Part shown: positions 25,568-47,230 of the stretch, piece by piece | How the letters are laid out: each line of letters opens with the position of its first letter | How positions within the stretch are numbered: the stretch's first letter is position 1 | Source: Actinomycetales bacterium | GTDB lineage: Bacteria; Actinomycetota; Actinomycetes; S36-B12 | Assembly: GCA_016125355.1 (NCBI GenBank) | Contig: WGLX01000006.1 | Span: 109,047-173,046 of the forward strand | Reading direction: 5' to 3' | DNA length: 64,000 nt | Notes under the pieces: generated by a model | Database searches by the model: none | What the model was told of the DNA's origin: nothing | What the model saw: the letters and a program-made list of their open reading frames with translations, nothing else | Made by a program: the position numbers and the translations under genes

Positions 25568-25843
25568 GTGGACGACAACCGACGGATTGCGCGCACGCCC
25601 GGCGTGCTGGAGGCCGAGGTCGACGGCGACCGAGTCCTCATGCATCCAGACGACTACACCTACTACGGCCTGACCGAGACCGGGGCCGCCGTGTGGAGCC
25701 TGATCGACGGCACGCGCTCCGTGGCCGACGTGGTCGCCGCACTGGCCGAGGAGTACGACGCGACGCCCGCGGTCATCCGAACGGACGTCGAGAGCTTCCT
25801 CAGCGGCATGGAGGCGGCCAAGCTGGTCACCTACGGGACCTGA
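25568..25843 (+). CDS. PqqD-family RiPP recognition element (lasso B1-type peptide chaperone)
   Basis: 91 aa with the typical PqqD pattern: [75 protein letters not shown]. It ends 4 nt before the ABC transporter start. Confidence 0.8.
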
Positions 25844-30249: not shown

Positions 30250-30378
30250 ATGAATCGATCATTTCGCCCATGGACGCCGCCGCGGATCGAGATGCTGAGG
30301 AGCGCGGCCTCGGCCGAGAGCGGCAACTCCTCCAGCTCGACGGAGAACACGACGTCCAACCCGTCGGCACCCCGGTAG
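30250..30378 (+). CDS. lasso-type RiPP precursor peptide A-a (42 aa)
   Basis: Not in the ORF track (<60 aa). MNRSFRPWTPPRIEMLRSAASAES|GNSSSSTENTTSNPSAPR. It shares W-x-x-P-x-(I/L/V/M)...A-E-S-G with four other small ORFs. The predicted core is Gly1...Glu8. Confidence 0.75.
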   Translation: MNRSFRPWTPPRIEMLRSAASAESGNSSSSTENTTSNPSAPR

Positions 30379-30448: not shown

Positions 30449-30577
30449 ATGAATACGACAAATCGCCCGTGGTCAGCTCCGCAGATGGAGGTCCTGAGCC
30501 ACGTCCTGTCGGCGGAGAGCGGCAACACCTCATTGATCAGCGAGTCGTCCGTTTCCGGCCCTTCGTCACCGAACTAG
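30449..30577 (+). CDS. lasso-type RiPP precursor peptide A-b (42 aa)
   Basis: Not in the ORF track. MNTTNRPWSAPQMEVLSHVLSAES|GNTSLISESSVSGPSSPN. It has the same length and register as A-a, and conserved codons (ATGAAT...CGCCC(A/G)TGG, GAGAGCGGCAAC). Confidence 0.75.
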   Translation: MNTTNRPWSAPQMEVLSHVLSAESGNTSLISESSVSGPSSPN

Positions 30578-30630: not shown

Positions 30631-30768
30631 ATGACAAACTCATTGCGGATCTGGTCCACCCCTCAGATCCTCGTCCTGCGCTCGACCGCCTCGGCCGAGT
30701 CCGGCACGCACACCACCATCACCGAGGCGACCGCAACCACGTACAGCTCCCCGTCCGGCGGCCGCTAG
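30631..30768 (+). CDS. lasso-type RiPP precursor peptide A-c (45 aa)
   Basis: C-terminal part of track ORF 30433..30768, starting at the ATG at 30631. MTNSLRIWSTPQILVLRSTASAES|GTHTTITEATATTYSSPSGGR. Core Gly1...Glu8. Confidence 0.75.
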   Translation: MTNSLRIWSTPQILVLRSTASAESGTHTTITEATATTYSSPSGGR

Positions 30769-30774: not shown

Positions 30775-30795
30775 ACCGGGTGTCCCGGGCGGTTT
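30775..30795 (+). terminator. weak hairpin plus T-run after the third tandem precursor gene
   Basis: CCGGG-tgt-CCCGG followed by GCGGTTTT, in the 43-nt gap between the convergent A-c and A-PCP-TE genes. The stem is short, so support is weak. Confidence 0.3.
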
Positions 30796-30811
30796 TCCGC
30801 GACCTGTCCGA

Positions 30812-33358
30812 TCAGCCCGTGACGTCGTCCATCGCGTCGAGGGCCTCGCGAATCGCGGTCGCCGTGTGCAGCCCTGCGGAGCCCGCGATCATCCCGTTGT
30901 GGGTCGCCTCGACGACCACCTGCGTCAGACGGACGCCGGGAATCGCGCTCCAGCCGAGGTCCGAGCGGTCCTGACGACCGCCACCAGCGCCCACCGCCCT
31001 CACGAGAACCACATCCCCCTCATAAGGACCGTCCTCGTGGTTCCTGCTGGCCACCTTGGCGAGGGCTTCGAAAGCCGCATGCTGACGTTCTCCGCGACGG
31101 GCCACGACCCCTGCGGTGAGGGCAAGCCATCGGCGACGAGCCCGACGCATCGGCAGCCGGGCCGCCCAGAACGCCTTGCGGGTGAGCGACGATGCCTTCC
31201 CCTGCGCGGCGCGCACCGCCTCCGCCTGCCGGAGCGCAGGACGTAGATCCGATCGCAGCCGTCGGGCCCGGTTCACCTGCTCCGTGACGGCCAGCGTGTC
31301 CAGCAGCACCACGAGGGGCACCGTCACCCCACGGGTGGTGAGCACGCGCGCGGTCTGCATGGCCACCGTGCCCCCGATGGAGTGGCCGATCAGCACGACC
31401 GGCCCGGTGCCCGCCACCTCGACGATGTCCGACGCGGCCGTCGTCGCCATGGCCTCGATGGTGCGGTCAGGGCGCTCGCGTCGGTCGAAGCCGCGTGGCA
31501 CAGCGACCCAGGCGGTACGGCCGCCGATCGTCCGTGCCAGCGTGGCCATCCCGGAGGTGTGGCCACCGCCACCGCCCGGGAAGAGCACCATCGGCACCGC
31601 ATCGCTCGGACCGGTCGCCGCGCGCACGAGGCGCTGCCGGTCCGGGGCGGCCGACACCCAGGCCTCGGCGAGGAGGGCGGGCGTTGGGTGGCGAAGGAGC
31701 AACCCCTCGGACACCGGACGTCCCCATACCGCCTCCAGTCGGGCGCAGACCTCCGACAGCGCGAGCGAGTCCGCGCCCAGGGCCAGCAGGTCGTCGTCGC
31801 GGCCGATGGCCGGATCACCGAGCACGGACCCGAACACCTCGGCAGCCTGCTGCTCGAAGGGGGATCGCGGTGGTGAGAACGCCGGCCTTCCGGTCGCCGA
31901 AGCCATGGCGGTGAGCGCCGCTCGGTCCACCTTGCCCCGGTCCGTGGAGGGCAGCGCGTCCAGCACCTCAACGCGGGCGGGAACATGCGTTCGGGGCAGG
32001 CGATCCGCGAGTGCCGCGCGCACCTGCCACCCGCGGAGGTCCTGGCCCACGACGAACGCCACAGGACGGGGGCGACCTGCCTGGTCGACGGCGATCACCA
32101 CGGCCGCCTCGTCCACGCCAGGCACGCGGCGCACGACGGCCTCGACCTGAACCGGGTCCACGAGCGCTCCCGAGACCTTGACGACATCGTCGGAGCGTCC
32201 CCGCAGGATCAGGGCGCCTGAGACGTCCCACGTGGCCCGGTCGCCGGTCCGGTACGACCGCCCTGTCGGGAGGTCGAGAAACCTCTCGGCGGTTCGCTCG
32301 GGGTCGTCGAGGTAGCCCAAGGCCAGCCATTCGCTCGACACGACAACCTCGCCGACGTCCTCCGGCCCGACGTCCCCACCATCCGGCCCGACCACCCGCA
32401 CCGTGAGCCACGGCACGACCTCGGTCAGCGGAATGGGATCGGTCGGGACGGGCTCCCCCGGGGGGATGCGAACGCCGGCGATCCAGTTGGTCTCGGAGGT
32501 GCTGTACCGGTGGAGCAGGGTTGCCTCGGGGAACAGCGCCCGTGCGCGATCGATCTGGGCAGCGGTCAGCCGGTCGCCGCCGAGGCTGACCAGGCGGACC
32601 CCCGGCAGGGGCGGCATGTCAGCGGACGCCAGCGCAGTGAGGGCTGCCGGCGCCAGGTGCGCGACGGTGACGCCCTCATCGGCGAGGCGATCGAGCACCG
32701 TGTGCGGACCCTCGGCGCTCAGGTCGGCCGTGATCAGGCGTGCGCCGTGCACCAGTGCGGTCCACGTGGGCGTGCCCGCCGCCACGGCGGAGAACGGGCT
32801 GGACACGAGCACCACGTCGTCTTCCGTGATCCCGACGGAACGGCCGTACGACTCGGCGTTGTGCACGATGCTCCGATGGGCGTGCACAACCGCCTTCGGG
32901 CGGCCCGCGGTCCCCGATGTCATCGAGACGGACGCAGGCAGCCCAGCCGCGGGCCAGCTCGGCGAAGTGATGGTCCGCGGGGGCGCTTCGACAGGAATCA
33001 CCTGCGGCCCCAGATCCAGAGCGGCTCGGCGGTGCAGGATGTCGGCAACCACCGCGCCCACGGAGTGCCGCGCCAGGACCTCCGCGTGGAACGCCGGCGG
33101 AGCATGGGGATCGAGCACGAGGTAGGCACGTCCCGACCAGGCGACACCGAGCATGGCCGCAACCATGTCGAGCCCGTCAGTGCACAGCACCGCCACGGGC
33201 CGGTCGGGCAGGGGGGCATCGCCCACCGCGGCGGCGAGCGCGGCGGATCGGACCGCGAGCTCGCGATAGGACAGAGCGCCGTGACGGGACAGGACGGCGA
33301 CCTTGTCGCAGTCCTCGCGGCCGGCGAGGACAGACTCGGGGAGGCTGCGGTCAGCCAT
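30812..33358 (-). CDS. stand-alone NRPS-like protein: adenylation - PCP - thioesterase
   Basis: 848 aa. A-domain cores: SMTSGTAGRPKAV, YSTSET, YRTGD, GRSDDVVKVSG and PSTDRGKVDR. PCP: LGADSLALSE. TE: GHSIGG. Its start overlaps the cyclase stop by 8 nt. Confidence 0.88.
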   Translation of the reverse strand: MADRSLPESVLAGREDCDKVAVLSRHGALSYRELAVRSAALAAAVGDAPLPDRPVAVLCTDGLDMVAAMLGVAWSGRAYLVLDPHAPPAFHAEVLARHSVGAVVADILHRRAALDLGPQVIPVEAPPRTITSPSWPAAGLPASVSMTSGTAGRPKAVVHAHRSIVHNAESYGRSVGITEDDVVLVSSPFSAVAAGTPTWTALVHGARLITADLSAEGPHTVLDRLADEGVTVAHLAPAALTALASADMPPLPGVRLVSLGGDRLTAAQIDRARALFPEATLLHRYSTSETNWIAGVRIPPGEPVPTDPIPLTEVVPWLTVRVVGPDGGDVGPEDVGEVVVSSEWLALGYLDDPERTAERFLDLPTGRSYRTGDRATWDVSGALILRGRSDDVVKVSGALVDPVQVEAVVRRVPGVDEAAVVIAVDQAGRPRPVAFVVGQDLRGWQVRAALADRLPRTHVPARVEVLDALPSTDRGKVDRAALTAMASATGRPAFSPPRSPFEQQAAEVFGSVLGDPAIGRDDDLLALGADSLALSEVCARLEAVWGRPVSEGLLLRHPTPALLAEAWVSAAPDRQRLVRAATGPSDAVPMVLFPGGGGGHTSGMATLARTIGGRTAWVAVPRGFDRRERPDRTIEAMATTAASDIVEVAGTGPVVLIGHSIGGTVAMQTARVLTTRGVTVPLVVLLDTLAVTEQVNRARRLRSDLRPALRQAEAVRAAQGKASSLTRKAFWAARLPMRRARRRWLALTAGVVARRGERQHAAFEALAKVASRNHEDGPYEGDVVLVRAVGAGGGRQDRSDLGWSAIPGVRLTQVVVEATHNGMIAGSAGLHTATAIREALDAMDDVTG

Positions 33359-34940
33359 CGCCCGTGCCGTCCCGGTCTGCTCGGGTCCGGCGGACGAGCT
33401 CCAGCAGCACGGGGTCGTCCTTCGACGTCATGCGGATGTGGTCGGGCACGAGGCCGTCCAGGGCCTTGCGGAACACCAGGCGAGTGTGCCCGCCCAGGCG
33501 GAACACCTCCGGCGGCATGGCCAGCGCCCACTCGACGAGCCGCACGTCCAGTAGGGGGTAGCGGTACTCGACCCCGAAGAGGAGCCCGGCCTCCCGCCAC
33601 GACTCGATCCGGCGCGCCAGGTGGTCGTTGGCGATGAGCGCCTCCTGCACGCCGCGGGGCGAACCCGCCGACCGCAGCCGCACCCGGTGCGCGCGCTGCG
33701 CAGCCACCAGCTCGGGGTGCTCGTGGCCGGTGCTCGCCATGAACTTCTCGCTCGTGCGGGGCTCTTGACGCCTCCCGCCGCGAAGTCGATCCCAGGGATC
33801 CCCGCCCGGCAGCGCCTCCAGCGCCAAGTCCGAGGCCGCCTGTGCACGGGACCGCCCGCGCGACCGGAGTTCCCGATAAGCGGCGCGAACCGGACCGACC
33901 TTGATGGAGCGCACCAGGGCCCGATTCGTCATGCGTCCGTTGAAGCTGGCGAACTCATCGCCGCCCCACCCGCTGAAGATCTGGCGGACGCCGAACTCCG
34001 CATACCGCGGGAGGATCGTGGACTCCCGATTGAGGGTGGAACGAGGCAGCCGGACCGGATCGATCCGCGCCAGCCACTCGGCTTCTCCCAGTTCGTGATG
34101 CCCGAAGATGACCGGCAGGTCGTGCTCAGCGGCCAGCTCCTGGACCAGGGCCCGTTCGTCATAGGCGATGTCGGCACTGTCGAGCGAAGGCAGCGATACC
34201 GGATCGGGGGACCAGGACACGACGGCCGCCAGCGTGCGCCCGCGGGAAGCCAGCTCGCGTTGGACGAGCAGTGCCACGGCCGTGGAATCGAGGCCGCCGG
34301 ACAGGTGTGCGGCGATCGCGTTGACGTCGTCGTGAGGTTCGCCGCGGAGCGCCGCCTCGACGTGGTCTGCCACGACGCCGAGCAGCAGCGCGCGCAGGCA
34401 GTCGGCGGCCTGGTCCACGGAGATGCCGCGCGCCTTCGGCACCTTCTCGGGGAGCCACCACCGGGTGACCGCTGCCTCGCGTCCTTGAATGCGCACCGCA
34501 CAGCCGGGAGGCACGCGATGGACGCCTGCCGCAGGCGTGCGGGTCGGCACCGTCGCGAGCGCGCGGGCCTTGGTCGCCCATGCGAATTCGGCGTCCGCTG
34601 CGATGCCTCCCGGCCGCGCAGCGAGAACCTCGGCGAGGGAGTCGGCGACCACCACGCCGTCGTCCGTTCGGGACCAGTACACGGGCATCAGGCCGAGTTG
34701 GTCCCGGACGATGAGGAGCCCGTCGCCGTCATCGACGGCGTATCCCCACGCACCGCGGAGGCGGGGGCCGGCGGCCCCTCCCCACCGCGTGGCGGCGGCT
34801 GACACGACCTCGCCATCCGAGGCAGAGGCGGATAGCCCCAACCCCGTCTCGAGCTCGGCCCGGTTCGTCAGCCAGCCAGCACTCCACACCACCTCGGCAG
34901 CGGGAGGGTCGGCCAGCACGTGGACATTGTGCCGCGTCAT
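33351..34940 (-). CDS. asparagine-synthetase-like lasso peptide cyclase (C protein)
   Basis: 529 aa. An N-terminal Ntn-like region is followed by the PP-loop AHLSGGLDSTAVA and the AsnB-type C-terminus (GVEYRYPLLDVRLVEWAL). It is divergent from precursor A-d, 54 nt away. Confidence 0.85.
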   Translation of the reverse strand: MTRHNVHVLADPPAAEVVWSAGWLTNRAELETGLGLSASASDGEVVSAAATRWGGAAGPRLRGAWGYAVDDGDGLLIVRDQLGLMPVYWSRTDDGVVVADSLAEVLAARPGGIAADAEFAWATKARALATVPTRTPAAGVHRVPPGCAVRIQGREAAVTRWWLPEKVPKARGISVDQAADCLRALLLGVVADHVEAALRGEPHDDVNAIAAHLSGGLDSTAVALLVQRELASRGRTLAAVVSWSPDPVSLPSLDSADIAYDERALVQELAAEHDLPVIFGHHELGEAEWLARIDPVRLPRSTLNRESTILPRYAEFGVRQIFSGWGGDEFASFNGRMTNRALVRSIKVGPVRAAYRELRSRGRSRAQAASDLALEALPGGDPWDRLRGGRRQEPRTSEKFMASTGHEHPELVAAQRAHRVRLRSAGSPRGVQEALIANDHLARRIESWREAGLLFGVEYRYPLLDVRLVEWALAMPPEVFRLGGHTRLVFRKALDGLVPDHIRMTSKDDPVLLELVRRTRADRDGTGDG

Positions 34941-34959
34941 GGTCCCCGTGAAATGGCTC

Positions 34960-34973
34960 TATCCGAGCGGATA
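34960..34973. promoter_or_regulatory. perfect 14-bp palindrome in the cyclase / precursor A-d divergent promoter (putative operator)
   Basis: TATCCGAGCGGATA lies centrally in the 54-nt intergenic region 34941-34994. The half-site TATCC/GGATA recurs in the repeat block upstream of the GAF-LuxR gene (23061-23098). Confidence 0.4.
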
Positions 34974-34994
34974 CGGAGTCGCTAGCATCCGGCC

Positions 34995-35132
34995 ATGACT
35001 TCGAAGATGCCATGGGGGACCCCCGAGCTGACCCTCCTGCGTTCCGCGGTGGACGCAGAGTCGGGCACGAGGTACTCCGACAGTTCCGAGGGCCAGAGCC
35101 AGTTGACCTTCGTGCCGTCCGGCCAGGCCTAA
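34995..35132 (+). CDS. lasso-type RiPP precursor peptide A-d (45 aa)
   Basis: Not in the ORF track. MTSKMPWGTPELTLLRSAVDAES|GTRYSDSSEGQSQLTFVPSGQA. Core Gly1...Glu9, with Asp6 too close to close a ring. Confidence 0.78.
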   Translation: MTSKMPWGTPELTLLRSAVDAESGTRYSDSSEGQSQLTFVPSGQA

Positions 35133-35147
35133 CGCCGGTCCTCGACC

Positions 35148-35172
35148 GACAGCCGAGGGCCGCTCGGCCGTC
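35148..35172 (+). other. stem-loop between precursor A-d and the downstream kinase-like gene (possible attenuator or RNA-stability element)
   Basis: GACAGCCGAG-ggccg-CTCGGCCGTC, a 10-bp stem with one mismatch. It lies 16 nt after the A-d stop and 35 nt before the ATG at 35207. Confidence 0.35.
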
Positions 35173-35206
35173 CTCATGCAGGGGCGACTGCCGACCCGCT
35201 GATCTC

Positions 35207-36049
35207 ATGACGACGCGTGTGCACTCTCTGCCTGCCCACCTCGGCATCGCTGTCCGCCGCGGCGTCGTACCGACGTCGCTCTCGGGTGGCCGACGCCTCC
35301 CGGGCGGCGTCACTGTCGCCGACGGCACCACCCTGGTGCGGTTTCCCCAAGGTGCCCTCCTCGTCGAGGACGGCACCACAGCCACGGTCGACTGGCCCGG
35401 CGGCAGCGACGTCCCGTCCTGGGTCATCGAGTCTTGGGCCGTGAGCCTGGCCATGGTGCAGCGCGGGAACCTCTGTCTGCACGCGTCCGTGGTTGCCGTG
35501 GGCGACCGGGTCGTCGCCATCGCCGGTGACTCGGGGGCCGGCAAGTCGACCACGGTGCTGGCCCTCGAGGCGCGGGGCCACCGCCTCCTGACCGACGACG
35601 TGGCCATCGTCGACCTGCGACCCGATGGACCGTGGGTGCTGCCGTACCAGCGCAGCGTCCATCTGCTCCCGGACGCGGCGGCCGCGCTCGACGTTGACTT
35701 CGCGGATCTGGCTCCCCTCGCCGACTTCCCCGAAAAGTCCGCCTACCATCCCGCGGCACCGCCGACCGATCCTCTGCCGATCCACGCCGTGGTGCTGCTC
35801 GTGCCGAATGAGGGCATTGAGATGCCCCGCGTGAGGGAACTGCGGGGCGTCGAGAAGGTGCAGTCGACGATGGTCCACGCGGGCCGACCGGTCACGTCTC
35901 CCGCGATCATGGGCGAGGAACGCTACTTCGCGGCCCTGACCGAGCTGGCCGCGCGGACCCCGGTCTACCTCCTCGAGCGGCCGGAAGGCGCGTGGACCCT
36001 CGACGAGGTCTGCACGGCCATCGAGTCGGTGGCCGCCGAGAAACGCTGA
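35207..36049 (+). CDS. HPr-kinase-like protein (candidate RiPP Ser/Thr kinase)
   Basis: ORF 35012..36049 trimmed to the ATG at 35207, giving 280 aa. [46 protein letters not shown] has an intact P-loop. Confidence 0.8.
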   Translation: MTTRVHSLPAHLGIAVRRGVVPTSLSGGRRLPGGVTVADGTTLVRFPQGALLVEDGTTATVDWPGGSDVPSWVIESWAVSLAMVQRGNLCLHASVVAVGDRVVAIAGDSGAGKSTTVLALEARGHRLLTDDVAIVDLRPDGPWVLPYQRSVHLLPDAAAALDVDFADLAPLADFPEKSAYHPAAPPTDPLPIHAVVLLVPNEGIEMPRVRELRGVEKVQSTMVHAGRPVTSPAIMGEERYFAALTELAARTPVYLLERPEGAWTLDEVCTAIESVAAEKR

Positions 36050-36092
36050 CGAGACGATGTACTTCGGCGTGGATGACCACTACCGTCCTCCC

Positions 36093-36233
36093 ATGCGCAC
36101 ACAGAAGCCCTGGGCCGCGCCCGAGGTAGCACTCCTGCGCGCAGCAGGGGACGCCCAAGGCGGTACTTACTCGTGGTCGACGGAGAACTCCGAGACGGCC
36201 ACCGGGTGCGTCGTTCCCTCAGGCAACGTCTGA
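36093..36233 (+). CDS. lasso-type RiPP precursor peptide A-e (46 aa; possible longer form from the ATG at 36057)
   Basis: Not in the ORF track. MRTQKPWAAPEVALLRAAGDAQG|GTYSWSTENSETATGCVVPSGNV. Core Gly1...Glu8. It ends 10 nt from the convergent A-PCP-TE stop. Confidence 0.75.
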   Translation: MRTQKPWAAPEVALLRAAGDAQGGTYSWSTENSETATGCVVPSGNV

Positions 36234-36243
36234 GCCCGATCCC

Positions 36244-38862
36244 CTAGGCCGACACTCGATTCAAGGCCTCCCGAACGAGACGTGCGGTCTCCGCCACGTA
36301 CGGTTCGTCCACCAACGTCTCGTGCGTGCTCGGGACCGTGCGGATCTGCACGGATCCCCGAACGAAATCTCCCCAGCGCAGGTCCGGCGGAGCGGATCCC
36401 AGATTGCGCGGATCCGACACGGCGGCGCAGATGAGCAGCAGGTCGCCCTCGAACGGCTTCTCCCGGTAGCGGGCCAGCGCGACCGCGACCACGGACTGGA
36501 ATGCCGCATCCCGGCGCTCGCTTCCGACGGGCAGCCAGCGGGCTGACGCCGCTCGGGCCCGGATGGCGACCCGCTCCCCCACGACGCGTCCCGACCAGAA
36601 GGCTCGCCGGGCCCAGCCCGTCCGCTGACCCCGTCGGGCACGCTCCGCCTCGCCGACGCGCACGTGCCGCGGGATGGCTGCACGTAGGGATCGCGACAGG
36701 CGCAGCTGCGGCGATCGCGGTGGCGAGTCCAGGACGACGACGAGCGGGACCTCGACGCCCGCGGCCCGCAGCTGGCGTGCGGCCTCCACCGCGATGTTCC
36801 CTCCCGAGGACATGCCGACCAAGGCGACCGGGCCGGGGGTGCCCTCGGCCAGCCAGTCCGACACGGCGGATCCCGCGATGCCCGTCACCGACCGATCGAT
36901 CCGCCCCCGGTACTGGTACCCCCGGGGGACCACGAGGAAGCACGGCCGACCCGCGACATGTCGAGCCAGCCGGGCGATGCCGGCCAGGCGCGTTCCGCCG
37001 CCGCCACCGAACAGGAGCAGCGGAACCCCTGTCCCGTCCACCGACGACAGCCGGATCAGGCGCGAGTCCCGCGAGGACCCCGGGCGGGCAGGCGCCCTCA
37101 GCGACTCGGCCAGACGGGCCGCCGTCGAGTGCCGAAGGAGCGTCGCCGCCGGCACGTCCCGCCCCAGCCTGGCCGACAGCGCCGATGCCGCCTCCTCGAG
37201 TCCCAGCGAGTCGGCGCCGAGGGCGAGGATGTCGTCGTCCCGGCCAAGGTCGTCCCGCCCGACCACCATGCCGAACTCCGCGAGGATCACAGCCTCGAGG
37301 TCGTCCCGGGCCGGAGCGAACTCCGGTCTCCCGGCGGCCACGGCACGGGTCGCGAGGGCATCGGCGTCCACCTTCCCCATGGGAGTGAGCGGCAGCTCGT
37401 CGACGATCTCGACCACGGCAGGCACCATCGCCGCAGGCAGGGCCGCGGCCACGGCACCGCGCAGGTCGACGGCCCGCACGCCGTCGGCGACGGCGAAAGC
37501 CGCGAGCCGCCGCTCTCCTGACTCGGTGTCGAAGGGCACGACCGCAGCGGCCTCGACACCCTCGACTGTTTCGAGCACGGCCTCGATGCGCACCGGGTCG
37601 ACGAGCACGTCGTGGATCTTCACGGTGGCATCGGCACGACCCGCGAACTCGAGCATCCCGTCCGGGCCACGTCGCATGCGATCGAGGGTCCGGTACCGCT
37701 GCTCGGCTCCGGCAGCCGAGAAGCGCGTGTCGGTGAGCTCCGCATCGTCGAGGTAGCCCAGGGCGAGATGGTCGCCGCGCACCTCCGCCTCGCCCTCACC
37801 CTCGCCGACGGCGACGGCACCATCGGGACCGACCAGGTCGAGGGCCAGCCACGGCACCGGCCAGCCGATGGGCACCGTACCTGTGCCGGGAAGCACAGCC
37901 ACATCGATCTCGAGCCCAGCGGTCCAGTTCGTCTCCGAGGTGTTGTAGCGGTGCAGGAGCCGCGCCTCGGGGAACATCCGATGCGCGGTGCGCACCTGGT
38001 CGACCGTGAGGCGATCGCCGCCCGTCAGGACCCAGCGGACGGTGTCGCAGGTGCGTGAGCCAGCACGCGACCCCAGCGCGGTGAGCAGGCCGGCCGTCAG
38101 GAACACCACCGAGCCGCGACGCTCGTCGAGCGTCGCCACCAGGTCGTCGACACCGGACGACAGGTCGTGGACGAGAGCGGTCGCTCCGCTCAGCAGCGCC
38201 GTGAACACCGGGGTGGCTCCGGCGACGAACGGGAACGGCAGGGTGGCCGCCAGGACGTCGCCGTCGCCCACTTCGAGTGCGCGAGAGACGCGCAGGGCGT
38301 TGTGCACGACGGACCGGTGGGCATGGACCACGGCCTTCGGCCGTCCGGACGTGCCCGAGGTGGACGAGACCGCCACCGGCGCGCCCGGATCGACGGCACG
38401 GTCAAGGGCCGCGCGGCCAGCCGGGGCGTCGAAGGACACGACGGGCGCTCCGCCGGACAGGCGCTCCGCCAGCACCGACTGGCCGGTGTCTCCGATCACC
38501 GCCGAGAGCCGGTGCCGGGAGCTGACCCGCTCGAGGTGCGCCACGGGTGCCTTCGCGTCGAGCACGAGGTACGCCCCGCCGGCGCGCGCCACAGCCAGCA
38601 TGGCCACGACCGCGCGGACATCGTGCCCGGCAAGTACTCCGACCGGGCGCCAGGGGTCCAGTCCCTCCGGCAGTGCCGCAGCGAGGGCTTCGGCTCGGTC
38701 ATCCAGTTCCGCATAGGTGAGGGACTGCTGCCGATCGACCACCGCCGTGCGCCCCGGCCAGCTCCGGACGGCCTCACGGAACGCCACGTCGAGTGTCCGC
38801 TCAGCCCTGTCGGGGTCGTCCAGATCGGCGGCCGGCGGCAGCAGCCACGGTCCGCTGTTCAC
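36244..38862 (-). CDS. second stand-alone NRPS-like protein: adenylation - PCP - thioesterase
   Basis: 872 aa and a paralogue of 30812..33358. Motifs: SSTSGTSGRPKAV, YNTSET, GRADATVKIHD, PLTPMGKVD, the PCP LGADSLGLEE and the TE GMSSGG. Confidence 0.88.
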   Translation of the reverse strand: MNSGPWLLPPAADLDDPDRAERTLDVAFREAVRSWPGRTAVVDRQQSLTYAELDDRAEALAAALPEGLDPWRPVGVLAGHDVRAVVAMLAVARAGGAYLVLDAKAPVAHLERVSSRHRLSAVIGDTGQSVLAERLSGGAPVVSFDAPAGRAALDRAVDPGAPVAVSSTSGTSGRPKAVVHAHRSVVHNALRVSRALEVGDGDVLAATLPFPFVAGATPVFTALLSGATALVHDLSSGVDDLVATLDERRGSVVFLTAGLLTALGSRAGSRTCDTVRWVLTGGDRLTVDQVRTAHRMFPEARLLHRYNTSETNWTAGLEIDVAVLPGTGTVPIGWPVPWLALDLVGPDGAVAVGEGEGEAEVRGDHLALGYLDDAELTDTRFSAAGAEQRYRTLDRMRRGPDGMLEFAGRADATVKIHDVLVDPVRIEAVLETVEGVEAAAVVPFDTESGERRLAAFAVADGVRAVDLRGAVAAALPAAMVPAVVEIVDELPLTPMGKVDADALATRAVAAGRPEFAPARDDLEAVILAEFGMVVGRDDLGRDDDILALGADSLGLEEAASALSARLGRDVPAATLLRHSTAARLAESLRAPARPGSSRDSRLIRLSSVDGTGVPLLLFGGGGGTRLAGIARLARHVAGRPCFLVVPRGYQYRGRIDRSVTGIAGSAVSDWLAEGTPGPVALVGMSSGGNIAVEAARQLRAAGVEVPLVVVLDSPPRSPQLRLSRSLRAAIPRHVRVGEAERARRGQRTGWARRAFWSGRVVGERVAIRARAASARWLPVGSERRDAAFQSVVAVALARYREKPFEGDLLLICAAVSDPRNLGSAPPDLRWGDFVRGSVQIRTVPSTHETLVDEPYVAETARLVREALNRVSA

Positions 38863-39815
38863 GCGGGTTCCCGGGATTCACGACTCACCCCGTGCGTGGA
38901 TCCGGCGGCCAGCACGCGCTCGGATCCACCCTCCGCAGCGCCCCAGGAACGCATGCGAAGCGCGTGGTCCGCATCGTCCGCTGAGCGCCACTCCCAGCTG
39001 ATGTGCCAGAGGCGCGCCTTTGCGGTCGCGCGCGCCCCGAGCGCCTCGATGGCCTCGGCGAGCCTCCGGCGCTCGTCGCCGTCGAGGTACATCAGCAGGG
39101 CGCTGTGCCAGATCACCGTGTCCGTGCCGGGTTGCAGCGTGAGGGACGCGGCGTAGTCCGCGGCCGAGCGCCGCACCACCGCCGCCGGCATGTCCGCCGC
39201 CCACGCGAGCGCACGATCCAGGGCCTCGCGTCGCCGCGGGTTGTCGATCCACACATAGCTGCGGAGCAGGGCCACGTCGTCGGGGTCCCTCGGGTCCAGC
39301 GGGTCGAGGTCGCACCCACCGCGCTCGACGATCTCCGGCAGGCGTGCGGCGTCGTGCGCATCAGTCCACTGCTCCGGATGCAGGTTGAGACCCGCGGACG
39401 CCCCGAGCTCGAACAGGCGGACCGGCCCGGGGATCTCGGCCAGGGCCCGACGCAGCTGCCGACCCCGTCCGATCTCGTTCGTCTGCGGCACCCGGGCGAG
39501 ATAGTGCGCGAGCACCTCGGGATGCTGCCGGAGGGCGTCCGCCACGGCGGACCTCTGCGCGGGGCCGGGCTCCCGGGGCAGGTCGGCATCGCCGTCGAGA
39601 ATGAGCCGGTGCAGTGCCGCGAGGATGCGCAGCCCCACCCGGTCCCCCGAGCGCACCCGGGGCGGAAGGAGCGTAGACGTGGGGCCGGTCAGGCCGTCGA
39701 CCACGGCACCGAGCAGGGCGGCGGAGACCGGCGCGTCCATCGCGAGGCAGAACTCCTGCTGCCAGCGAAGCGCATCCACCAGGTCGACGATCGCATCGTC
39801 AGGGGGTCGGTGCAC
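38859..39815 (-). CDS. DUF2332-like protein
   Basis: 318 aa. YLARVPQTNEIGRGRQLRRALAEIPGPVRLFELGASAGLNLHPEQW matches my recollection of the DUF2332 signature (QTNE..R ... E.GaSAGLNL). It overlaps the downstream A-PCP-TE start by 4 nt. Confidence 0.6.
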   Translation of the reverse strand: MHRPPDDAIVDLVDALRWQQEFCLAMDAPVSAALLGAVVDGLTGPTSTLLPPRVRSGDRVGLRILAALHRLILDGDADLPREPGPAQRSAVADALRQHPEVLAHYLARVPQTNEIGRGRQLRRALAEIPGPVRLFELGASAGLNLHPEQWTDAHDAARLPEIVERGGCDLDPLDPRDPDDVALLRSYVWIDNPRRREALDRALAWAADMPAAVVRRSAADYAASLTLQPGTDTVIWHSALLMYLDGDERRRLAEAIEALGARATAKARLWHISWEWRSADDADHALRMRSWGAAEGGSERVLAAGSTHGVSRESREPA

Positions 39816-39877: not shown

Positions 39878-40993
39878 GTGACTGCCGGGGTGCCGCCGCT
39901 GCGAGACATCGTGCCGGGCTGGCGTCCCCCCGCCCCCGGGCGCGCGATCGCCGTGGTCGAGGGCGAGGGCATCGGGGCCGAGGTCGTGGGCGCGGCCCTC
40001 ACGGTGCTGTCGGCCGCCTGCGATGCCTGGCAGACCGAGGTCCTCGTCGACCGGTCGGGCCCGATCGGCAGCGTCGGTCCGGCCGGTTTCGGCCTCGACC
40101 AGGCCGCGGTCGACTTCTACGATTCCGCCTTCGAGCGTGGGCTGCCGGTGCTCACCGGGCCGGCCGGTGGGCGCTTCGTCTATGAGCTGCGGGCCCGCTA
40201 CGAACTGTTCGTCAAACTCGTCCCGACCCGGCCGGACGCCGGCCTCGCCGACGCCTCGGTCATCCGCCCCGAGCGGCTGCGCGAGGTGGATGTGCTCATC
40301 GTGCGGGACAACATCGGCGGGCTCTACCAGGGTGCCTTCAGCGTGTCCGCGGATGGGCGGTCGGCGTTCCAGGAGGCCCGCTACGACCTCGACACCGTCG
40401 AGGTGCTCATGCAGGTCGCGGTCGCCGCGGCTCGCGCACGCGGCGGCCGTCTCGCCGTGGTCACCAAGCCCGGTGGCATCCCGACCATCAGCGCGCTGTG
40501 GCGTCGAGTGGCCGAGGAGCACGCCGGCGATGACGTGGTGATCGACGTCATCGAGGTGGACAACGCGTGCTTCCAGCTGGTCGCCGACCCCCATCGCTTC
40601 GACGTTGTCGCTGCTCCGAACATGCTCGGCGACGTCGTGGCGGACACCGCCGCCCTCGTGCTCGGCTCGCGCGGGCTGTCCTACTCGGCGAACTTCGGTC
40701 TCCCAGGACGGGCGGTCTACCAGACCGGCCACGGAGCGGCACACGATCTGGCCGGACTCGACCGCGCCAATCCCATTGCCCAGATCAGGTCCCTGGCATG
40801 GCTGATCCGAGAGAGCCTGGAGCTGCCGCACATGGCGGAGTCCATCGAGATGGCGGTGGACTCGGTCCTGGCCGATGGTTTCCGCACCGCCGACATCGCC
40901 AGCCCAGGGTCCACCGTGCTGGGCACCCGGGGGCTCGCGACGCGCATCGCCGAGCGTGTCAAGCAGGCCGCGCTGGACCGCGCTTCACCGTGA
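39878..40993 (+). CDS. isocitrate/isopropylmalate dehydrogenase-family oxidoreductase
   Basis: 371 aa. IAVVEGEGIGAEVV, LIVRDNIGGLY and NMLGDVVADTAA (the NxxGD(I/V)xSD-type motif) are typical of beta-decarboxylating dehydrogenases. Confidence 0.75.
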   Translation: MTAGVPPLRDIVPGWRPPAPGRAIAVVEGEGIGAEVVGAALTVLSAACDAWQTEVLVDRSGPIGSVGPAGFGLDQAAVDFYDSAFERGLPVLTGPAGGRFVYELRARYELFVKLVPTRPDAGLADASVIRPERLREVDVLIVRDNIGGLYQGAFSVSADGRSAFQEARYDLDTVEVLMQVAVAAARARGGRLAVVTKPGGIPTISALWRRVAEEHAGDDVVIDVIEVDNACFQLVADPHRFDVVAAPNMLGDVVADTAALVLGSRGLSYSANFGLPGRAVYQTGHGAAHDLAGLDRANPIAQIRSLAWLIRESLELPHMAESIEMAVDSVLADGFRTADIASPGSTVLGTRGLATRIAERVKQAALDRASP

Positions 40994-42891
40994 CGCCGGT
41001 CCCCACCGCCCTGCTGGTGGTCGACATGCAGGCCGACTACCTCGCGCGGCCCGGCCTTCAGCCGTCTCCCGACCTCCTCGTGGCATCCGTGTCCGAGCTG
41101 CTGGCCGCGTTCCGGTTGGCAGGCGCACCCATCGCCCACGTACGCACGCTCGTGCGCCCGGACGGTTCCGATGCCATGCCGCATTGGCGGGCATCGGGTG
41201 AGCTGGCCTGCATCGCCGGAACGCCGGGGGCACGTCCTCCGGAGATGCTCGTCGAACGTCCGGGCGAACTCATCGCCGCCAAGCAGCACTACCGCGGCTT
41301 CGCCGACCCTCGTCTCGAGCCGTGGCTGCGACAGCGCGGCGTCGAACGCGTCGTGATCGCGGGCCTGTACCTCCACGCGTGCGTGCGCGAGACCGCCCTC
41401 GACGCCTACGAGCGGGGCTTCGCGGTGGTCATTGCCGAGGACGCGGTCGGGATGGCCGATCCCGATCACGGCCGACTCACGCGCGAGTGGCTCGCCGACC
41501 GGGCGGCCGCGTTCCGGTCGACGGCCGACATCCTCGCGGAGCTCCCCCAGGCCACCGCGTTGAGCGGGGACGCCGTCGACGCCGCCATCACCCGGGTCGC
41601 CGCGGCCCAGCCGGACTGGGCGACCGCCGACCCGTCGATGCGGGCTGACGTCCTCGCACGCTGCGCCGACGTTCTCGAGCGTTCCCCGGACGTGGTCCGG
41701 ACGATCGTGGCCGAGGTCGGGAAGCCGGTGGCAGCGGCCCGGGAGGAAGTCTCACGGGCCGTGGGACACCTCCGGACCTCCGCTCGTCTGGCCCGAGAGG
41801 AGGGCCGGGACACGGTGATCGCGGACGGCGTCGAGGTGCGTCGCGTGCCGCTGGGCGTGGTGGCGGCGATCATGCCGTGGAACAACCCGATCGCCCTCCC
41901 CTGCGGCAAGATCGGCCCAGCCCTCGCCCTCGGTAACGGCGTGGTCCTCAAGCCGGCGCCCGAGGCCCAAGGCTGCGCCGAACTCCTTCTGACGATCCTC
42001 CGCTCCGCCGGGCTTCCCGAGGGGCTTGTGGAGGTGGTCCCCGGAGGCGCCACGGTGGGCGCTGCCGTCGCAGCACATCCCGGAATCGACGCCGTCACCC
42101 TGACCGGGTCGATCGCCGCGGGCCGAGCCGTCGCCGACATCTGCGGCCGCCGAGCAGTCCCGCTGCAGGCGGAACTGGGGGGCAACAATGCAGCGGTCGT
42201 CCTGGCCGATGCCGATCTCACCCGTGATGTACCCGACCTGCTGCGCAATGCGTTCGCGTTCGCGGGACAACGGTGCACCGCGGTGCGTCGATTCGTCGTG
42301 CTCGAGGAGGGCCTCAGGGAGTTCGAGGACGCCGTCATCCGCCTCCTGGATGGCGTGCGCGTCGGCGATCCCGCTGACGAGGGCGTCCTAGCCGGGCCCA
42401 TGATCACGCCCGAAGCGCGGACCCGGGTCGAGGACGCGGTGGCGGAGGCGGTCGCCGCGGGGGCGCAGGTCGTCGCGCGAGCAGCCATCGGCCCCGATCA
42501 CGACCCCCGCTACCTGGCTCCCGTCGTGCTGCGGACGGAGGACCCGTCCAGCGCGATCGTCCAGCAGGAGACGTTCGGACCCGTGGCGGTGATCCAGCCG
42601 GCGCGGGACGTCGACGAGGCGATCGCGCTGGCGAACGGAGTCGAACAGGGCCTCGTGCAGTTCGTCTGCACGCGCGACCCGCAGCTCGCACAGGCAGTGA
42701 TGCACCGGGCCGAGGCCGGCATCGTGCAGTGGGGTGGCGGGTCCGTTCCCGTCCATGCCGAGGCGCCCTTCGGCGGCTGGAAGGCCTCGGGGTTCGGACC
42801 GCCCGAGCACGGTCGGTGGGACGCGGAGTTCTACACGCGCCCGCAGGCGGTCTACGCCCCGTCGGACGGCCCACGCGGGTCCGACAGCTAG
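40990..42891 (+). CDS. fusion protein: isochorismatase-family (cysteine hydrolase) domain + aldehyde dehydrogenase domain
   Basis: GTG at 40990 (GTGA overlap), 633 aa. N-terminal domain: ALLVVDMQADY ... VVIAGLYLHACVRETALDA. C-terminal domain: IMPWNNP, ELGGNNA, FAFAGQRCTA and QETFGPV. Confidence 0.8.
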   Translation: MTPVPTALLVVDMQADYLARPGLQPSPDLLVASVSELLAAFRLAGAPIAHVRTLVRPDGSDAMPHWRASGELACIAGTPGARPPEMLVERPGELIAAKQHYRGFADPRLEPWLRQRGVERVVIAGLYLHACVRETALDAYERGFAVVIAEDAVGMADPDHGRLTREWLADRAAAFRSTADILAELPQATALSGDAVDAAITRVAAAQPDWATADPSMRADVLARCADVLERSPDVVRTIVAEVGKPVAAAREEVSRAVGHLRTSARLAREEGRDTVIADGVEVRRVPLGVVAAIMPWNNPIALPCGKIGPALALGNGVVLKPAPEAQGCAELLLTILRSAGLPEGLVEVVPGGATVGAAVAAHPGIDAVTLTGSIAAGRAVADICGRRAVPLQAELGGNNAAVVLADADLTRDVPDLLRNAFAFAGQRCTAVRRFVVLEEGLREFEDAVIRLLDGVRVGDPADEGVLAGPMITPEARTRVEDAVAEAVAAGAQVVARAAIGPDHDPRYLAPVVLRTEDPSSAIVQQETFGPVAVIQPARDVDEAIALANGVEQGLVQFVCTRDPQLAQAVMHRAEAGIVQWGGGSVPVHAEAPFGGWKASGFGPPEHGRWDAEFYTRPQAVYAPSDGPRGSDS

Positions 42892-43337
42892 CCCACCAGG
42901 CCGGAGGCGGCGATCTGCTCGCCCGTGACGGCGCCCGGAACCTCGAACACTCCGGTCGCGGTGAATCCCCGCGCCGCCGGGCCACCCGTCAGTACCCCGG
43001 AAGGCACCATCAGCCAGGCGTGCGCGGCCCAGTCTCCGCCCGTATCCGGACGTCGCAACCCGATCACCACGACCCCGGCGCTGTGCCGGCGCCGCAGCAT
43101 CGCCTGCGCCGCGATCGCCTGGGCCAGGCAGCTGGGCGTCCACGGCAGGTGCCGCGAACCCGACTCGATGGCCGCCTTCACCTGCGTGTCCACCGGCCGT
43201 GGCTGCGTGCGCACCATCCGCTGGACGGCGGTGCCTCGCCACGGCTGTGGCACGGGCACGGACTCGCCGAGCCAACTGGCCCAGTGACGGATCGGCACCC
43301 ACCGCTGCACCGCGGAGCCGACCGTGAGAAGAGCCAT
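42888..43337 (-). CDS. transglutaminase-like lasso leader peptidase (B2 protein)
   Basis: ORF 42888..43703 trimmed to the ATG at 43337, giving 149 aa. TPSCLAQAIAAQAMLRRRHSAGVVVIGLRRPDTGGDWAAHAWLMV carries the Cys...His pattern of lasso B2 proteins. Confidence 0.8.
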   Translation of the reverse strand: MALLTVGSAVQRWVPIRHWASWLGESVPVPQPWRGTAVQRMVRTQPRPVDTQVKAAIESGSRHLPWTPSCLAQAIAAQAMLRRRHSAGVVVIGLRRPDTGGDWAAHAWLMVPSGVLTGGPAARGFTATGVFEVPGAVTGEQIAASGLVG

Positions 43338-43448
43338 CGCCTCCGACGTGCGCGCCCAGCCGGCCACGCGTGCCCGGGGCGATGTCGTCACGAGGCCGAG
43401 TGTAGGCGCGGGCCCCACCGCCGCGCGGCTCTCGGCTACCGTCGACGC

Positions 43449-44576
43449 GTGCCGGTCGACCGCGTCGTGGTGATCACCACGAACCCGGCTGCACTCGCCC
43501 GCCTGGCGGGTCCCCTGTCGCAGGCGGGGCTCAGGATCGTGGACTGGTCGCCTCGGGGCAGCTGCACCGGCTACAGCCGCCACGTCGACGAGCACCACGA
43601 CCTCGCCGATGATCCCGCGGCCCGCGGCAGGCAGCTCGCCGCCATCGCCCGGTCGATCAGTCCCTCGGACTGGGTGGTCCTCGGCACGGATGCCGACATC
43701 CACGACGTGATGGATCGACGGCGAGCAGACTCATCCCTGACCCGACTGCTCCCCACGGCGCGGCACCACAAGACGCTCGGCTCCAAGATCGCCATGGCCG
43801 CCGCGCTCGCCGACCTCGGGGTCGAGCAGCCGGCGTGGACGAGCGCGAGCACGGCCGAGGCCGTGCCGGCCGCCGTCGCCGAACTGGGTGGGGAGGTCGC
43901 GGTGAAGGGTGACCGCGGGTGGGGCGGCCTCGCCGTGACTCGGGTTCCCGCAGGTTCCGCGCCGACCGGTCTCGCGGGGGATGCTCCGTTCCTCGTGCAG
44001 CGTTGGGAGCCGGGAACCCTCGTCTCGATCGACCTGCTCGTCGTACGCGGCGAGGTCGCCCTGGCCCCCTACTCAGTCGTGCTCGGCGAGATCAGGGAGC
44101 GGGGAGCCAGCTACCACCGCGTGTACCTCCCGATTCCCGATGACGGCCTGCGCGAATCCCTGCGGCGCCTGGCCTCAGGGCTGGGCGGGACCTGGTTCGG
44201 CAACGTCTCAGCGATCGCGCGACCGGACGGATCGCACGCCATCATCGAGCTCGACCCACGGCCGAATGCCTGGCATGCCTATCTGGGACGACTCGGGTAC
44301 CCGCTCGTGGCCGCACTCCGGTCGGTGGCGACCGGCACCGATGTCCCCGCGGAGGCCGCCTTGCCCCGCTCCGGCCGGCCCGTCGTCAACCTCACCCGAG
44401 TCGTCCAGGGGAGCCTTGCCGGGAACTCGGTGCGTGCGCGCGCCCTCTTCTATCCCCGGGCGACATGGCGCCATGTGCACCGGGGGGACCTGGCGCTGAC
44501 CTACCGCGAGGCCAGGGACCTCGCGAGGTGGGTTGTCCTGACGCGGGCCGGGCGTCGACGGGTCGAGGACACCTGA
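43449..44576 (+). CDS. ATP-grasp domain protein
   Basis: C-terminal ~375 aa of ORF 42729..44576, with a provisional GTG start at 43449. KTLGSKIAMAAALADLGVEQPAW...GGEVAVKGDRGWGGLAV...FLVQRWEPGTLVSIDLLVVRGEV follows the ATP-grasp pattern. Confidence 0.6.
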   Translation: MPVDRVVVITTNPAALARLAGPLSQAGLRIVDWSPRGSCTGYSRHVDEHHDLADDPAARGRQLAAIARSISPSDWVVLGTDADIHDVMDRRRADSSLTRLLPTARHHKTLGSKIAMAAALADLGVEQPAWTSASTAEAVPAAVAELGGEVAVKGDRGWGGLAVTRVPAGSAPTGLAGDAPFLVQRWEPGTLVSIDLLVVRGEVALAPYSVVLGEIRERGASYHRVYLPIPDDGLRESLRRLASGLGGTWFGNVSAIARPDGSHAIIELDPRPNAWHAYLGRLGYPLVAALRSVATGTDVPAEAALPRSGRPVVNLTRVVQGSLAGNSVRARALFYPRATWRHVHRGDLALTYREARDLARWVVLTRAGRRRVEDT

Positions 44577-46958: not shown

Positions 46959-47230
46959 CCGACGCGCTCTACCGCCGGGCCCCCGGCGCCGTCGACGCGG
47001 TGGTCGACGGACAGGTGGTCCTGCTCGCCCCGGTGGACTTCAGCTACCAGTCCCTCGACCGGGTCGGCGGCCGGGTCTGGGAGCTCCTCGCCGAGCCGAG
47101 GACCGTGGACGATCTCGTCGGCATGCTGCGATCGCAGTTCGACGTCGACGAGGCCCGCTGCCGCGCCGACCTGCTGCCGTTCCTCGACCGCATGACGTCG
47201 CTCGGCATCCTCGAGCGGGACGCGTCCTAG
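46955..47230 (+). CDS. PqqD-family RiPP recognition element (second copy)
   Basis: ATG at 46955 (ATGA overlap), 91 aa. AVDAVVDGQVVLLAPVDFSYQSLDRVGGRVWELLAEPRTVDDLVGMLRSQFDVDEARCRADLLPFLDRMTSLGIL. Confidence 0.8.
   Translation: MTDALYRRAPGAVDAVVDGQVVLLAPVDFSYQSLDRVGGRVWELLAEPRTVDDLVGMLRSQFDVDEARCRADLLPFLDRMTSLGILERDAS

Follow-up and report, generated by a model that had tools for sequence, protein, structure and literature searches.

Besides the lasso peptide machinery, the gene clusters for paeninodin and pseudomycoidin encode a homologue of HPr kinase and a nucleotidyltransferase, and in some cases also a sulfotransferase; it is the final residue of the peptide, a Ser, that serves as the target (PMC8498205). 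Albusnodin is a lasso peptide acetylated by a GNAT acetyltransferase (PMC9266682). The lasso modifications covered in a 2022 review are disulfide formation, phosphorylation, methylation, acetylation, hydroxylation, epimerisation, citrullination, succinimide formation and linearisation, and none of them is carrier-protein dependent (PMC9266682). Here we describe a lasso-type gene cluster from an uncultured actinobacterium that also encodes two nonribosomal peptide synthetase (NRPS)-like enzymes, TE1 and TE2. Each consists of an adenylation domain, a peptidyl carrier protein and a thioesterase (A-PCP-TE). The cluster lies on contig WGLX01000006.1, within a 64,000-nucleotide stretch (hereafter the window; G+C ~70%), and spans ~25.5-48.4 kb of it.

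This is one multi-precursor gene cluster, and positions 34941-38862 are part of its middle. That segment contains precursor gene A-d, an HprK-like kinase gene (K2), precursor gene A-e, and the convergent gene for TE2. A similar set occupies 28417-33358: a sulfotransferase-HprK fusion, three precursor genes (A-a, A-b, and A-c), and the convergent gene for TE1. The cluster family is rare and conserved. About ten related loci share the lasso core genes, three HprK-like paralogues, an Iso_dh-type dehydrogenase, an isochorismatase-aldehyde dehydrogenase (ALDH) fusion, and one to about four A-PCP-TE genes.

On sequence comparison, TE1 and TE2 are ancient, separately conserved paralogues, and not the products of a recent module copy. 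The best explanation for their presence, which we consider somewhat probable, is that they load a small non-amino acid and pass it to the lasso peptides. The apparent novelty lies in a rare lasso family of actinobacteria whose two conserved NRPS-like enzymes have a predicted tailoring role, and which has a putative acid-supply cassette. A full-text literature search found no paper tying lasso peptides to A-PCP-TE enzymes, isochorismatase, or DUF2332; the library is incomplete, and a prior description is possible.

The locus resembles the paeninodin and pseudomycoidin clusters in its lasso core, HprK-like kinase, NTP_transf_5-type nucleotidyltransferase, sulfotransferase, ABC exporter, and conserved Ser near the precursor C-terminus. 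Unlike them, it places this Ser three or four residues before the end, has leaders without Thr at position -2, comes from an actinobacterial host, and includes three conserved kinase paralogues, one of which lacks the P-loop. Moreover, the A-PCP-TE, Iso_dh, isochorismatase-ALDH, and DUF2332 proteins have not been described for those clusters. Albusnodin resembles the product proposed here in that a lasso peptide is acylated on a side chain, and in that the acceptor residue is conserved across precursors. However, albusnodin is made with acetyl-CoA and a GNAT enzyme acting on Lys, whereas the present proposal involves a thioester on a carrier protein and a TE domain, and Lys is missing from all five window cores.

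A lasso cluster with five precursors

All five precursors in the window have the features of lasso substrates: core residue 1 is Gly (lasso precursors have Gly, Ala, Ser, or Cys there), and an acidic residue (Asp or Glu at positions 7-9) is present as Glu at core position 8 or 9. Each leader has Pro three residues after a Trp, and Gly1 follows exactly 17 residues after that Trp. The cores, by comparison, are strongly different. A first-pass annotation of this DNA had proposed both the invariant Trp-to-Gly register and the divergent cores, and both hold for all five precursors. The A-d core, GTRYSDSSEGQSQLTFVPSGQA, has Gly1, Glu9, and a Ser four residues from the C-terminus; the A-e core, GTYSWSTENSETATGCVVPSGNV, has Gly1 and Glu8.

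When the 64 kb were searched for the motif in all six frames, these five precursors came up along with two Arg/Pro-rich matches, at 53445 (+) and 52150 (-). The latter have no start codon in view and are read as wrong-frame chance matches. Codon composition agrees with translation of the five: in-frame G+C at third codon positions (GC3) is 0.89 for A-d and 0.78 for A-e, and 0.78-0.93 for the five together, versus 0.43-0.71 in the other frames.

Fourteen further precursors come from five genomes, whose loci are labelled L001 (four precursors), L002 (three), L085 (one), L086 (two), and L091 (four). Across the resulting 19 precursors from six genomes, W-17, P-14, L-9, and Glu8/9 are common to all. 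Gly1 lies 17 residues after the Trp in 18, the L085 peptide being shifted by one residue. The 19 also share a C-terminal (P/A)S motif, mostly followed by Gly, in which the Ser stands three (16/19) or four (3/19) residues from the end. No window precursor ends in Ser. The (P/A)SG motif is absent from two actinobacterial precursor candidates of loci with no TE gene in view.

The usual lasso leader motif is Y(-17)xxP(-14)xL(-12), with Thr at -2. The present leaders do not match it: the -17/-14 spacing is kept, but Trp stands for Tyr and Leu is at -9. Position -2 is Glu, Gln, Met, Asn, or Leu, and never Thr.

A-d, A-e, and an orthologue in L002 form a precursor subtype that ends in VPSG and is distinct from A-a, A-b, and A-c. 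The L002 peptide is the positional orthologue of A-d, encoded between cyclase and kinase, and is 47% identical to it; L085 probably holds a frameshifted A-d orthologue. The closest relatives of A-e are A-d (48%) and the L002 cyclase-side precursor (45%). A precursor in the A-e position, between kinase and TE2, was found in the window only.

The core biosynthetic proteins vary in how closely they match the curated models. The cyclase scores above the cut-offs of the Pfam models Asn_synthase (E 4e-23) and GATase_7, and reaches 94.8 bits with NCBIfam NF033535, far under the 525-bit cut-off; its relatives in other genomes lie in lasso-type neighbourhoods. The leader peptidase (B2) scores 53.9 bits with NF033537 (cut-off 33) and also matches Transglut_core3 (PF13471, E 8e-14). 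Its longest open reading frame (ORF) has 271 codons. Because the orthologues have 149-206 residues, the 5' part of this ORF is probably non-coding, and translation probably starts at an internal Met near 43337 to give a protein of ~149 residues. The PqqD-type leader-recognition protein matches the lasso_PqqD models with E 1e-14, at 54.2 bits versus an 80-bit cut-off; its orthologues carry PF05402.

The cluster is most reasonably taken as a lasso system: the B2 score and the precursor pattern argue for this assignment, whereas the cyclase and PqqD models remain under their curated cut-offs and Thr at -2 is lacking. The window contains a single cyclase gene and a single B2 gene, consistent with the earlier suggestion that the five cores share these two enzymes.

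Two conserved A-PCP-TE enzymes

TE1 and TE2 are 41% identical over 841 residues (E 4e-151). Both keep the adenylation motifs TSGTSGxPKA, YRT(G/L)D, GRxDxxVK, and GKVD (motifs A3, A7, A8, and A10); the phosphopantetheine-attachment Ser of the PCP (GADSL); the thioesterase GxSxG motif in the form G(H/M)SxGG; and the C-terminal TE His. By these residues, both enzymes look catalytically competent. They belong to a small family: in a collection of 5.8 billion proteins, ~25 are at least ~36% identical over full length, and the next matches are ordinary NRPS modules. Among the matches listed in a profile search of metagenome contigs with the A-PCP-TE alignment, all were ordinary NRPS domains (at most 34% identity) and none lay near lasso genes. 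Among solved structures, NRPS adenylation domains such as that of LgrA come closest.

The first-pass annotation had viewed TE1 and TE2 as duplicates, a reading for which they should be each other's closest homologues. They are not. TE1 is closest to P0242 (60%) and P0008 (49%), proteins of other genomes, followed by several at 45-47%; TE2 comes tenth, the self-match included. The closest relatives of TE2 are P0002 (56%), P0003 (49%), and P0004 (46%). A neighbour-joining bootstrap tree (24 sequences, 850 columns, 200 bootstraps) places the two in separate clades. The TE1 clade (90%) otherwise comprises proteins from L001, L002, L086, and a 66-kb JGI contig; the TE2 clade (88%) includes P0002-P0005, P0009, P0017, and P0018. 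An additional clade, found outside lasso contexts, has 100% bootstrap.

The two clades also keep different partner genes. In four loci (the window, L001, L002, and L091), the gene following the cyclase gene is of TE1 type and overlaps with it; in the window, the cyclase stop overlaps the TE1 start by 8 nt. A TE2-type gene follows the DUF2332 gene in every case examined (the window, L002, L084, L085, L086, L087, and L089). Here the DUF2332 gene overlaps the TE2 start by 4 nt (GTGA), which suggests translational coupling.

Some loci contain additional members. The 66-kb JGI contig has at least three A-PCP-TE genes, and L002 has a third, distant one at 1694-4108 (-) (804 residues, ~28% identical, code IAISYYKEV), directly after its Iso_dh and isochorismatase-ALDH genes.

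The adenylation pockets suggest a substrate that is not an α-amino acid. At positions 235, 236, 239, 278, 299, 301, 322, 330, and 331, the TE1-type pocket reads V A T H S G R W I and the TE2-type pocket reads V A T F (L/V) G R W (T/V/A). The comparison of specificity-conferring residues proposed in the first-pass annotation reveals both difference and agreement: TE1 and TE2 differ at 278 and 299, and both have R322 and W330 and lack Asp235. The difference follows the clades, with H278 and S/A299 in TE1-type enzymes and F278 and L/V299 in TE2-type enzymes. This suggests that the paralogues take related but different acids.

Asp235, which binds the α-amino group of the substrate, is absent throughout the family; the position is V, A, Q, T, or L (Val in both TE1 and TE2). 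Its loss argues against an α-amino acid substrate. R322 is invariant and W330 nearly so across the family. Given what is generally known of adenylation domains, Arg and Trp closing the pocket would point to a substrate acid that is small and probably anionic.

Stand-alone enzymes with adenylation, thiolation, and thioesterase domains (A-T-TE) that activate α-keto acids include TdiA, the atromentin synthetases, and RalA; they yield free quinones or furanones from aromatic keto acids. Like these, TE1 and TE2 have no condensation domain, and have a hydrophobic residue in place of Asp235 (V235, A236). Unlike these, they display the invariant Arg and Trp in the pocket, they are encoded in a cluster for a peptide made on the ribosome and modified post-translationally (RiPP), and one of the two genes is coupled to the cyclase gene.

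A putative acid-supply cassette

The genes for Iso_dh and the isochorismatase-ALDH fusion accompany A-PCP-TE genes in ten loci or contigs: the 66-kb JGI contig, L001, L002, and L084-L090. The exceptions are L004 and the short L091 contig. In L087, L088, and L089, the Iso_dh, isochorismatase-ALDH, and A-PCP-TE genes form a single operon. The L087 genes run in one direction, in the order B2, cyclase, Iso_dh, isochorismatase-ALDH, DUF2332, A-PCP-TE; the L089 order is B2, Iso_dh, isochorismatase-ALDH, DUF2332, A-PCP-TE. By inspection of its sequence, the isochorismatase domain displays the Asp-Lys-Cys triad of the amidohydrolase branch, and the ALDH domain scores best with semialdehyde dehydrogenases. 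These features suggest a cassette for making and loading a small acid.

Lasso clusters at large provide a comparison. In a set of 79 loci related by their cyclase and drawn from species-representative genomes, A-PCP-TE, Iso_dh, and ALDH genes turned up just once, in the close relative L001. The other 78 are distant lasso-type clusters (~22-34% cyclase identity), with no A-PCP-TE gene in the stretches covered.

The DUF2332 protein may have a methyltransferase-like fold. Its AlphaFold2 model (pLDDT 93.6) retrieves class-I S-adenosylmethionine-dependent methyltransferases in Foldseek, including the α-keto-acid C-methyltransferases SgvM and MrsA, with a best E of ~1e-3, most matches being weaker, and with TM-scores of 0.26-0.30; this is weak evidence for such a fold. 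A sequence search of the PDB with the protein gave nothing meaningful.

Proposed pathway

The following model would account for these genes. As in other lasso systems, the PqqD protein would bind the leader, B2 would cut before Gly1, and the single cyclase would join Gly1 to Glu8/9. By analogy to paeninodin and pseudomycoidin, the HprK-like kinases, the fused sulfotransferase, and the nucleotidyltransferase would decorate hydroxyl groups. The TE1 and TE2 adenylation domains would activate a small, probably anionic non-amino acid, such as a keto or dicarboxylic acid, probably made by the LeuB-like dehydrogenase and the isochorismatase-ALDH fusion. For TE2, the acid may first be altered by the methyltransferase-like DUF2332 protein.

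The acid would then be held as a thioester on the PCP, and the TE domain would hand it to the peptide. As acceptor, the strongest candidate is the invariant Ser in the (P/A)SG motif at the C-terminus, or else a group that this Ser carries. With pockets that differ by clade, the two enzymes might add two acyl groups or serve two precursor subtypes.

In its full form, the model would describe the first carrier-protein-tailored lasso family: acids from the dehydrogenase and amidase-ALDH cassette, perhaps methylated by DUF2332, would be esterified to the C-terminal-proximal Ser, in addition to phosphorylation, sulfation, and nucleotidyl or glycosyl transfer, all on peptides closed by one cyclase. 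This fuller version is offered tentatively, as plausible rather than probable.

Activated acyl units are joined to peptides elsewhere. Lipolanthines, goadvionins, and pheganomycin are hybrids of RiPPs with polyketide synthase, fatty acid synthase, or NRPS products, and salinamide biosynthesis involves a transesterifying TE. The likeness to the present model is in concept only: a ribosomal peptide receives an acyl unit activated by a thiotemplate or a ligase, or a TE moves an acyl group onto a hydroxyl of a peptide. Unlike the peptides considered here, lipolanthines, goadvionins, and pheganomycin belong to other RiPP classes and are joined by GNAT or ATP-grasp enzymes, and neither a lasso peptide nor an A-PCP-TE enzyme is known to be involved in any of these cases.

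Several points weigh against acyl loading for lasso peptides. We infer the product, the substrate, the acceptor, and the transfer step. TE domains usually hydrolyse or cyclise, and intermolecular transfer is rarer. The specificity code was mapped through a PheA fragment and cross-checked, at the Asp235 position only, by alignment with LgrA. The A-PCP-TE tree was built by neighbour joining, not maximum likelihood, and the TM-scores of the DUF2332 fold matches are low. The related loci number about ten in all, and many are on short or error-prone contigs.

Finally, some A-PCP-TE genes are found away from lasso genes. L088, a 14-kb contig, has Iso_dh, isochorismatase-ALDH, and two A-PCP-TE genes, and no lasso gene. 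L090 (GCA_964391765.1, CAYMNG010000031.1) has a nucleotidyltransferase gene overlapping an A-PCP-TE gene, together with Iso_dh, isochorismatase-ALDH, ABC, and clpX genes; no cyclase, PqqD, kinase, or precursor gene occurs in the 14.8 kb seen. P0014, from L004, has an unrelated gene context. Hence, the cassette can stand alone, and A-PCP-TE enzymes need no lasso peptide in principle.

Alternative explanations

L088 and L090 are what one would expect if TE1 and TE2 formed an independent NRPS-like pathway to a free small molecule, for example through TE condensation of two keto-acyl units, with the lasso genes co-located or co-regulated only. The A-PCP-TE clade outside lasso contexts also fits this explanation, and the A-T-TE order and the V-A start of the specificity code resemble those of keto-acid-activating NRPS-like enzymes. 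However, such a pathway does not account for the overlap of TE1 and cyclase genes in four loci, nor for the interleaving of cassette genes with lasso genes, seen also in the one-direction order of L087. Nor does it account for the (P/A)SG motif, which is common to these precursors and absent from the two candidates without a TE gene in view. On balance, we regard a separate small-molecule pathway as unlikely.

The first-pass annotation proposed a different history, in which a self-contained module of precursor, kinase, and A-PCP-TE genes was duplicated in the cluster and diverged; each copy would now serve its own precursors. Much of the underlying description is sound. A-d and A-e do flank an HprK-like gene with an intact P-loop, and an A-PCP-TE gene converges on them, all at or near the positions first assigned. 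The layout does mirror that of 28417-33358 (kinase fusion, three precursors, convergent A-PCP-TE gene), for which only the A-c coordinates had to be corrected. The cyclase gene separates the two mirrored halves, and the genes for PqqD, the ABC exporter, and the P-loop-less HprK-like protein lie upstream.

The corresponding parts are also paralogous: this is true of TE1 and TE2, of the precursors, with their two distinct subtypes, and of the kinase domains (K2 and the kinase half of the 28417-30198 fusion are 39.5% identical). In addition, the VPSG subtype has so far been seen only alongside TE2-type genes (in the window, L002, and probably L085), and the TE2-less L001 does not have it. This amounts to three of four TE2-positive loci and none of one TE2-negative locus, numbers too small to decide whether TE2 is dedicated to these precursors.

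What does not stand is recent duplication of these parts as a unit. The A-PCP-TE clades, with their different conserved partners, already argue against it, and the HprK-like domains do so as well. Bootstrap analysis separates three kinase orthologue groups: cyclase-adjacent (91%); precursor-adjacent, often fused to sulfotransferase (72%); and P-loop-less (100%). K2 groups with the cyclase-adjacent kinases of L002 and L085, and the two window kinases were sisters in 0/300 replicates. The cyclase-adjacent kinase thus appears to be an old orthologue group, and the kinase groups are equally old.

Moreover, the parts of the supposed module occur separately. L001 has the cyclase-adjacent kinase, with neither TE2 nor flanking precursors; L086 has TE2, but no precursor between kinase and cyclase. 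In L087 and L089, neither precursor nor kinase genes interrupt the operons of TE2-type, Iso_dh, isochorismatase-ALDH, and DUF2332 genes, which speaks for an acid-supply cassette and against a precursor-kinase module. Together, the separate clades, partner genes, and kinase groups indicate that the mirrored layout is an old conserved architecture. The duplications are older than the split between all these genomes, and the parts were not copied as a single unit. A duplicated module with copies dedicated to their own precursors is accordingly quite improbable.

Very doubtful, finally, is adenylation of the peptide's own C-terminal carboxylate, with TE closure of a lactone onto the upstream Ser to form a bulky plug that locks the lasso: the fixed distance from Ser to C-terminus (three or four residues in 19/19 precursors), the pocket without Asp235, and the nature of TE domains as cyclases would suit it, but the conserved Arg and Trp fill the pocket, suggesting a small substrate; the same pocket residues are present in family members away from any lasso gene; the obligatory Iso_dh and ALDH partners are left with no role; and we know of no NRPS adenylation domain that adenylates a peptide C-terminus.

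Kinases and precursor expression

Matches of the HprK-like proteins to curated models are distant. K2 matches Pfam Hpr_kinase_C with E 4e-7 and 30.1 bits (cut-off 33.3). HprK_rel_A (TIGR04352) matches K2 with E 2e-12 and the fused kinase with E 3e-15, scores far under the 200-bit cut-off. The P-loop-less paralogue is kept in five loci, and may be a pseudokinase or scaffold.

Each window precursor gene is preceded by a T-N4-T hexamer that ends 6 nt before the ATG (TAGCAT at A-d and TACCGT at A-e), and none has a Shine-Dalgarno sequence. The hexamer was spotted by eye and afterwards checked in other loci. In L001, all four precursors show this geometry, with TTGAC(A/G) lying upstream of a T(T/G)(C/G)GAT hexamer; the L086 precursors have a GGAGGA ribosome-binding site instead. 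Scans of both precursor regions for E. coli-type promoters and terminators found nothing. Presumably, each precursor has its own promoter, which would give a leaderless mRNA. Like the codon bias, the recurrence of the family in other genomes, and the A-d orthologue of L002, the hexamers lend indirect support to translation of A-d and A-e.

The A-e and TE2 stop codons are 10 nt apart (36231-36246), leaving no room for a terminator; in L001, 11 nt separate TE1 from the last precursor. With such spacing, convergent transcripts would overlap.

A second family of small peptides shares a W-Q-x-P-x-V motif: MADDMNTWQAPEVTQITDAGG..., MPESPDDWQAPEVTPLTDPDG..., and MMEHTPLEPWQPPTVDEVALV..., encoded at 45796-45912 (+), 45958-46080 (+), and 44602-44694 (-). 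In-frame GC3 is 0.85-0.95, and TANNNT lies 6 nt before every ATG; the peptides have neither the Gly1/Glu8 pattern nor PSG. Their genes adjoin a fourth HprK-like gene (46098-46958), a second PqqD gene (46955-47230), and the nucleotidyltransferase gene. These peptides may be substrates of a second RiPP pathway.

Gene content and surroundings

Beyond TE2, the gene order is DUF2332, LeuB-like Iso_dh, isochorismatase-ALDH fusion, B2 peptidase, and NTP_transf_5 nucleotidyltransferase (Table 1). An ORF at ~43575-44576, considered as ATP-grasp-like, was dropped, as it has no Pfam or NCBIfam match.

Table 1. Positions of cluster features within the 64,000-nucleotide window.
Feature	Position	Strand	Remarks
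PqqD-type leader-recognition protein (B1, the RiPP recognition element)	25568..25843	+	
ABC exporter (D protein)	25848..27632	+	
HprK-like paralogue without P-loop	27629..28420	+	GGMTEQSQ for GxSGxGKST; no Pfam or NCBIfam match
Sulfotransferase + HprK-like kinase fusion	28417..30198	+	P-loop intact
Precursor A-a	30250..30378	+	
Precursor A-b	30449..30577	+	
Precursor A-c	30631..30768	+	corrected coordinates
TE1, NRPS-like A-PCP-TE	30812..33358	-	848 aa; code VATHSGRWI
Asn-synthase-like lasso cyclase (C protein)	33351..34940	-	sole one in window
Precursor A-d	34995..35132	+	45 aa, MTSKMPWGTPELTLLRSAVDAESGTRYSDSSEGQSQLTFVPSGQA; leader W-17, P-14, L-9
K2, HprK-like kinase	35207..36049	+	intact P-loop GDSGAGKST
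Precursor A-e	36093..36233	+	46 aa, MRTQKPWAAPEVALLRAAGDAQGGTYSWSTENSETATGCVVPSGNV; alternative ATG at 36057
TE2, NRPS-like A-PCP-TE	36244..38862	-	872 aa, MBI1350211.1; AMP-binding, PP-binding, Thioesterase domains; code VATFLGRWT
DUF2332 protein	38859..39815	-	PF10094, E 3e-52
LeuB-like Iso_dh dehydrogenase	39878..40993	+	
Isochorismatase-family hydrolase + aldehyde dehydrogenase fusion	40990..42891	+	
Lasso B2 leader peptidase	42888..43703	-	only one in window; transglutaminase-like
NTP_transf_5 nucleotidyltransferase	47227..48405	-	kept in related loci
Promoter-like hexamer regions	30238-30249, 30437-30448, 30619-30630, 34983-34994, 36081-36092		upstream of the five precursors

The cluster is bordered by clpX (24020-25309, -), as are those in L001 and L090, which suggests a shared chromosomal position in related actinobacteria. 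At the other end, the cluster adjoins a gene for the nucleoid-associated silencer Lsr2 (48424-49029, -), which likewise stands beside the clusters of L002, L090, and the 66-kb JGI contig. Further on, 49684-52095 (-) encodes a protein of 803 residues in which an HprK-like domain at the N-terminus (GDAGYGKST) is joined to a pair of GT2 glycosyltransferase domains. Next come GT1- and GT61-type genes, at 52555-53727 and 54838-55641.

Significance

One lesson is cautionary: mirrored gene order within a cluster can stem from ancient, separately conserved paralogues, and need not signal recent duplication. Lasso peptides are prized as stable scaffolds. If acyl loading by TE1 and TE2 is borne out, the pairing of cyclase and A-PCP-TE enzyme would be a new route joining thiotemplate chemistry to ribosomal peptides, a route widened by the acid-supply cassette and by the second, DUF2332-paired A-PCP-TE enzyme. 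It would also provide the first functional context for DUF2332 and for an unstudied subfamily of adenylation domains, and the enzymes might be usable for peptide acylation.

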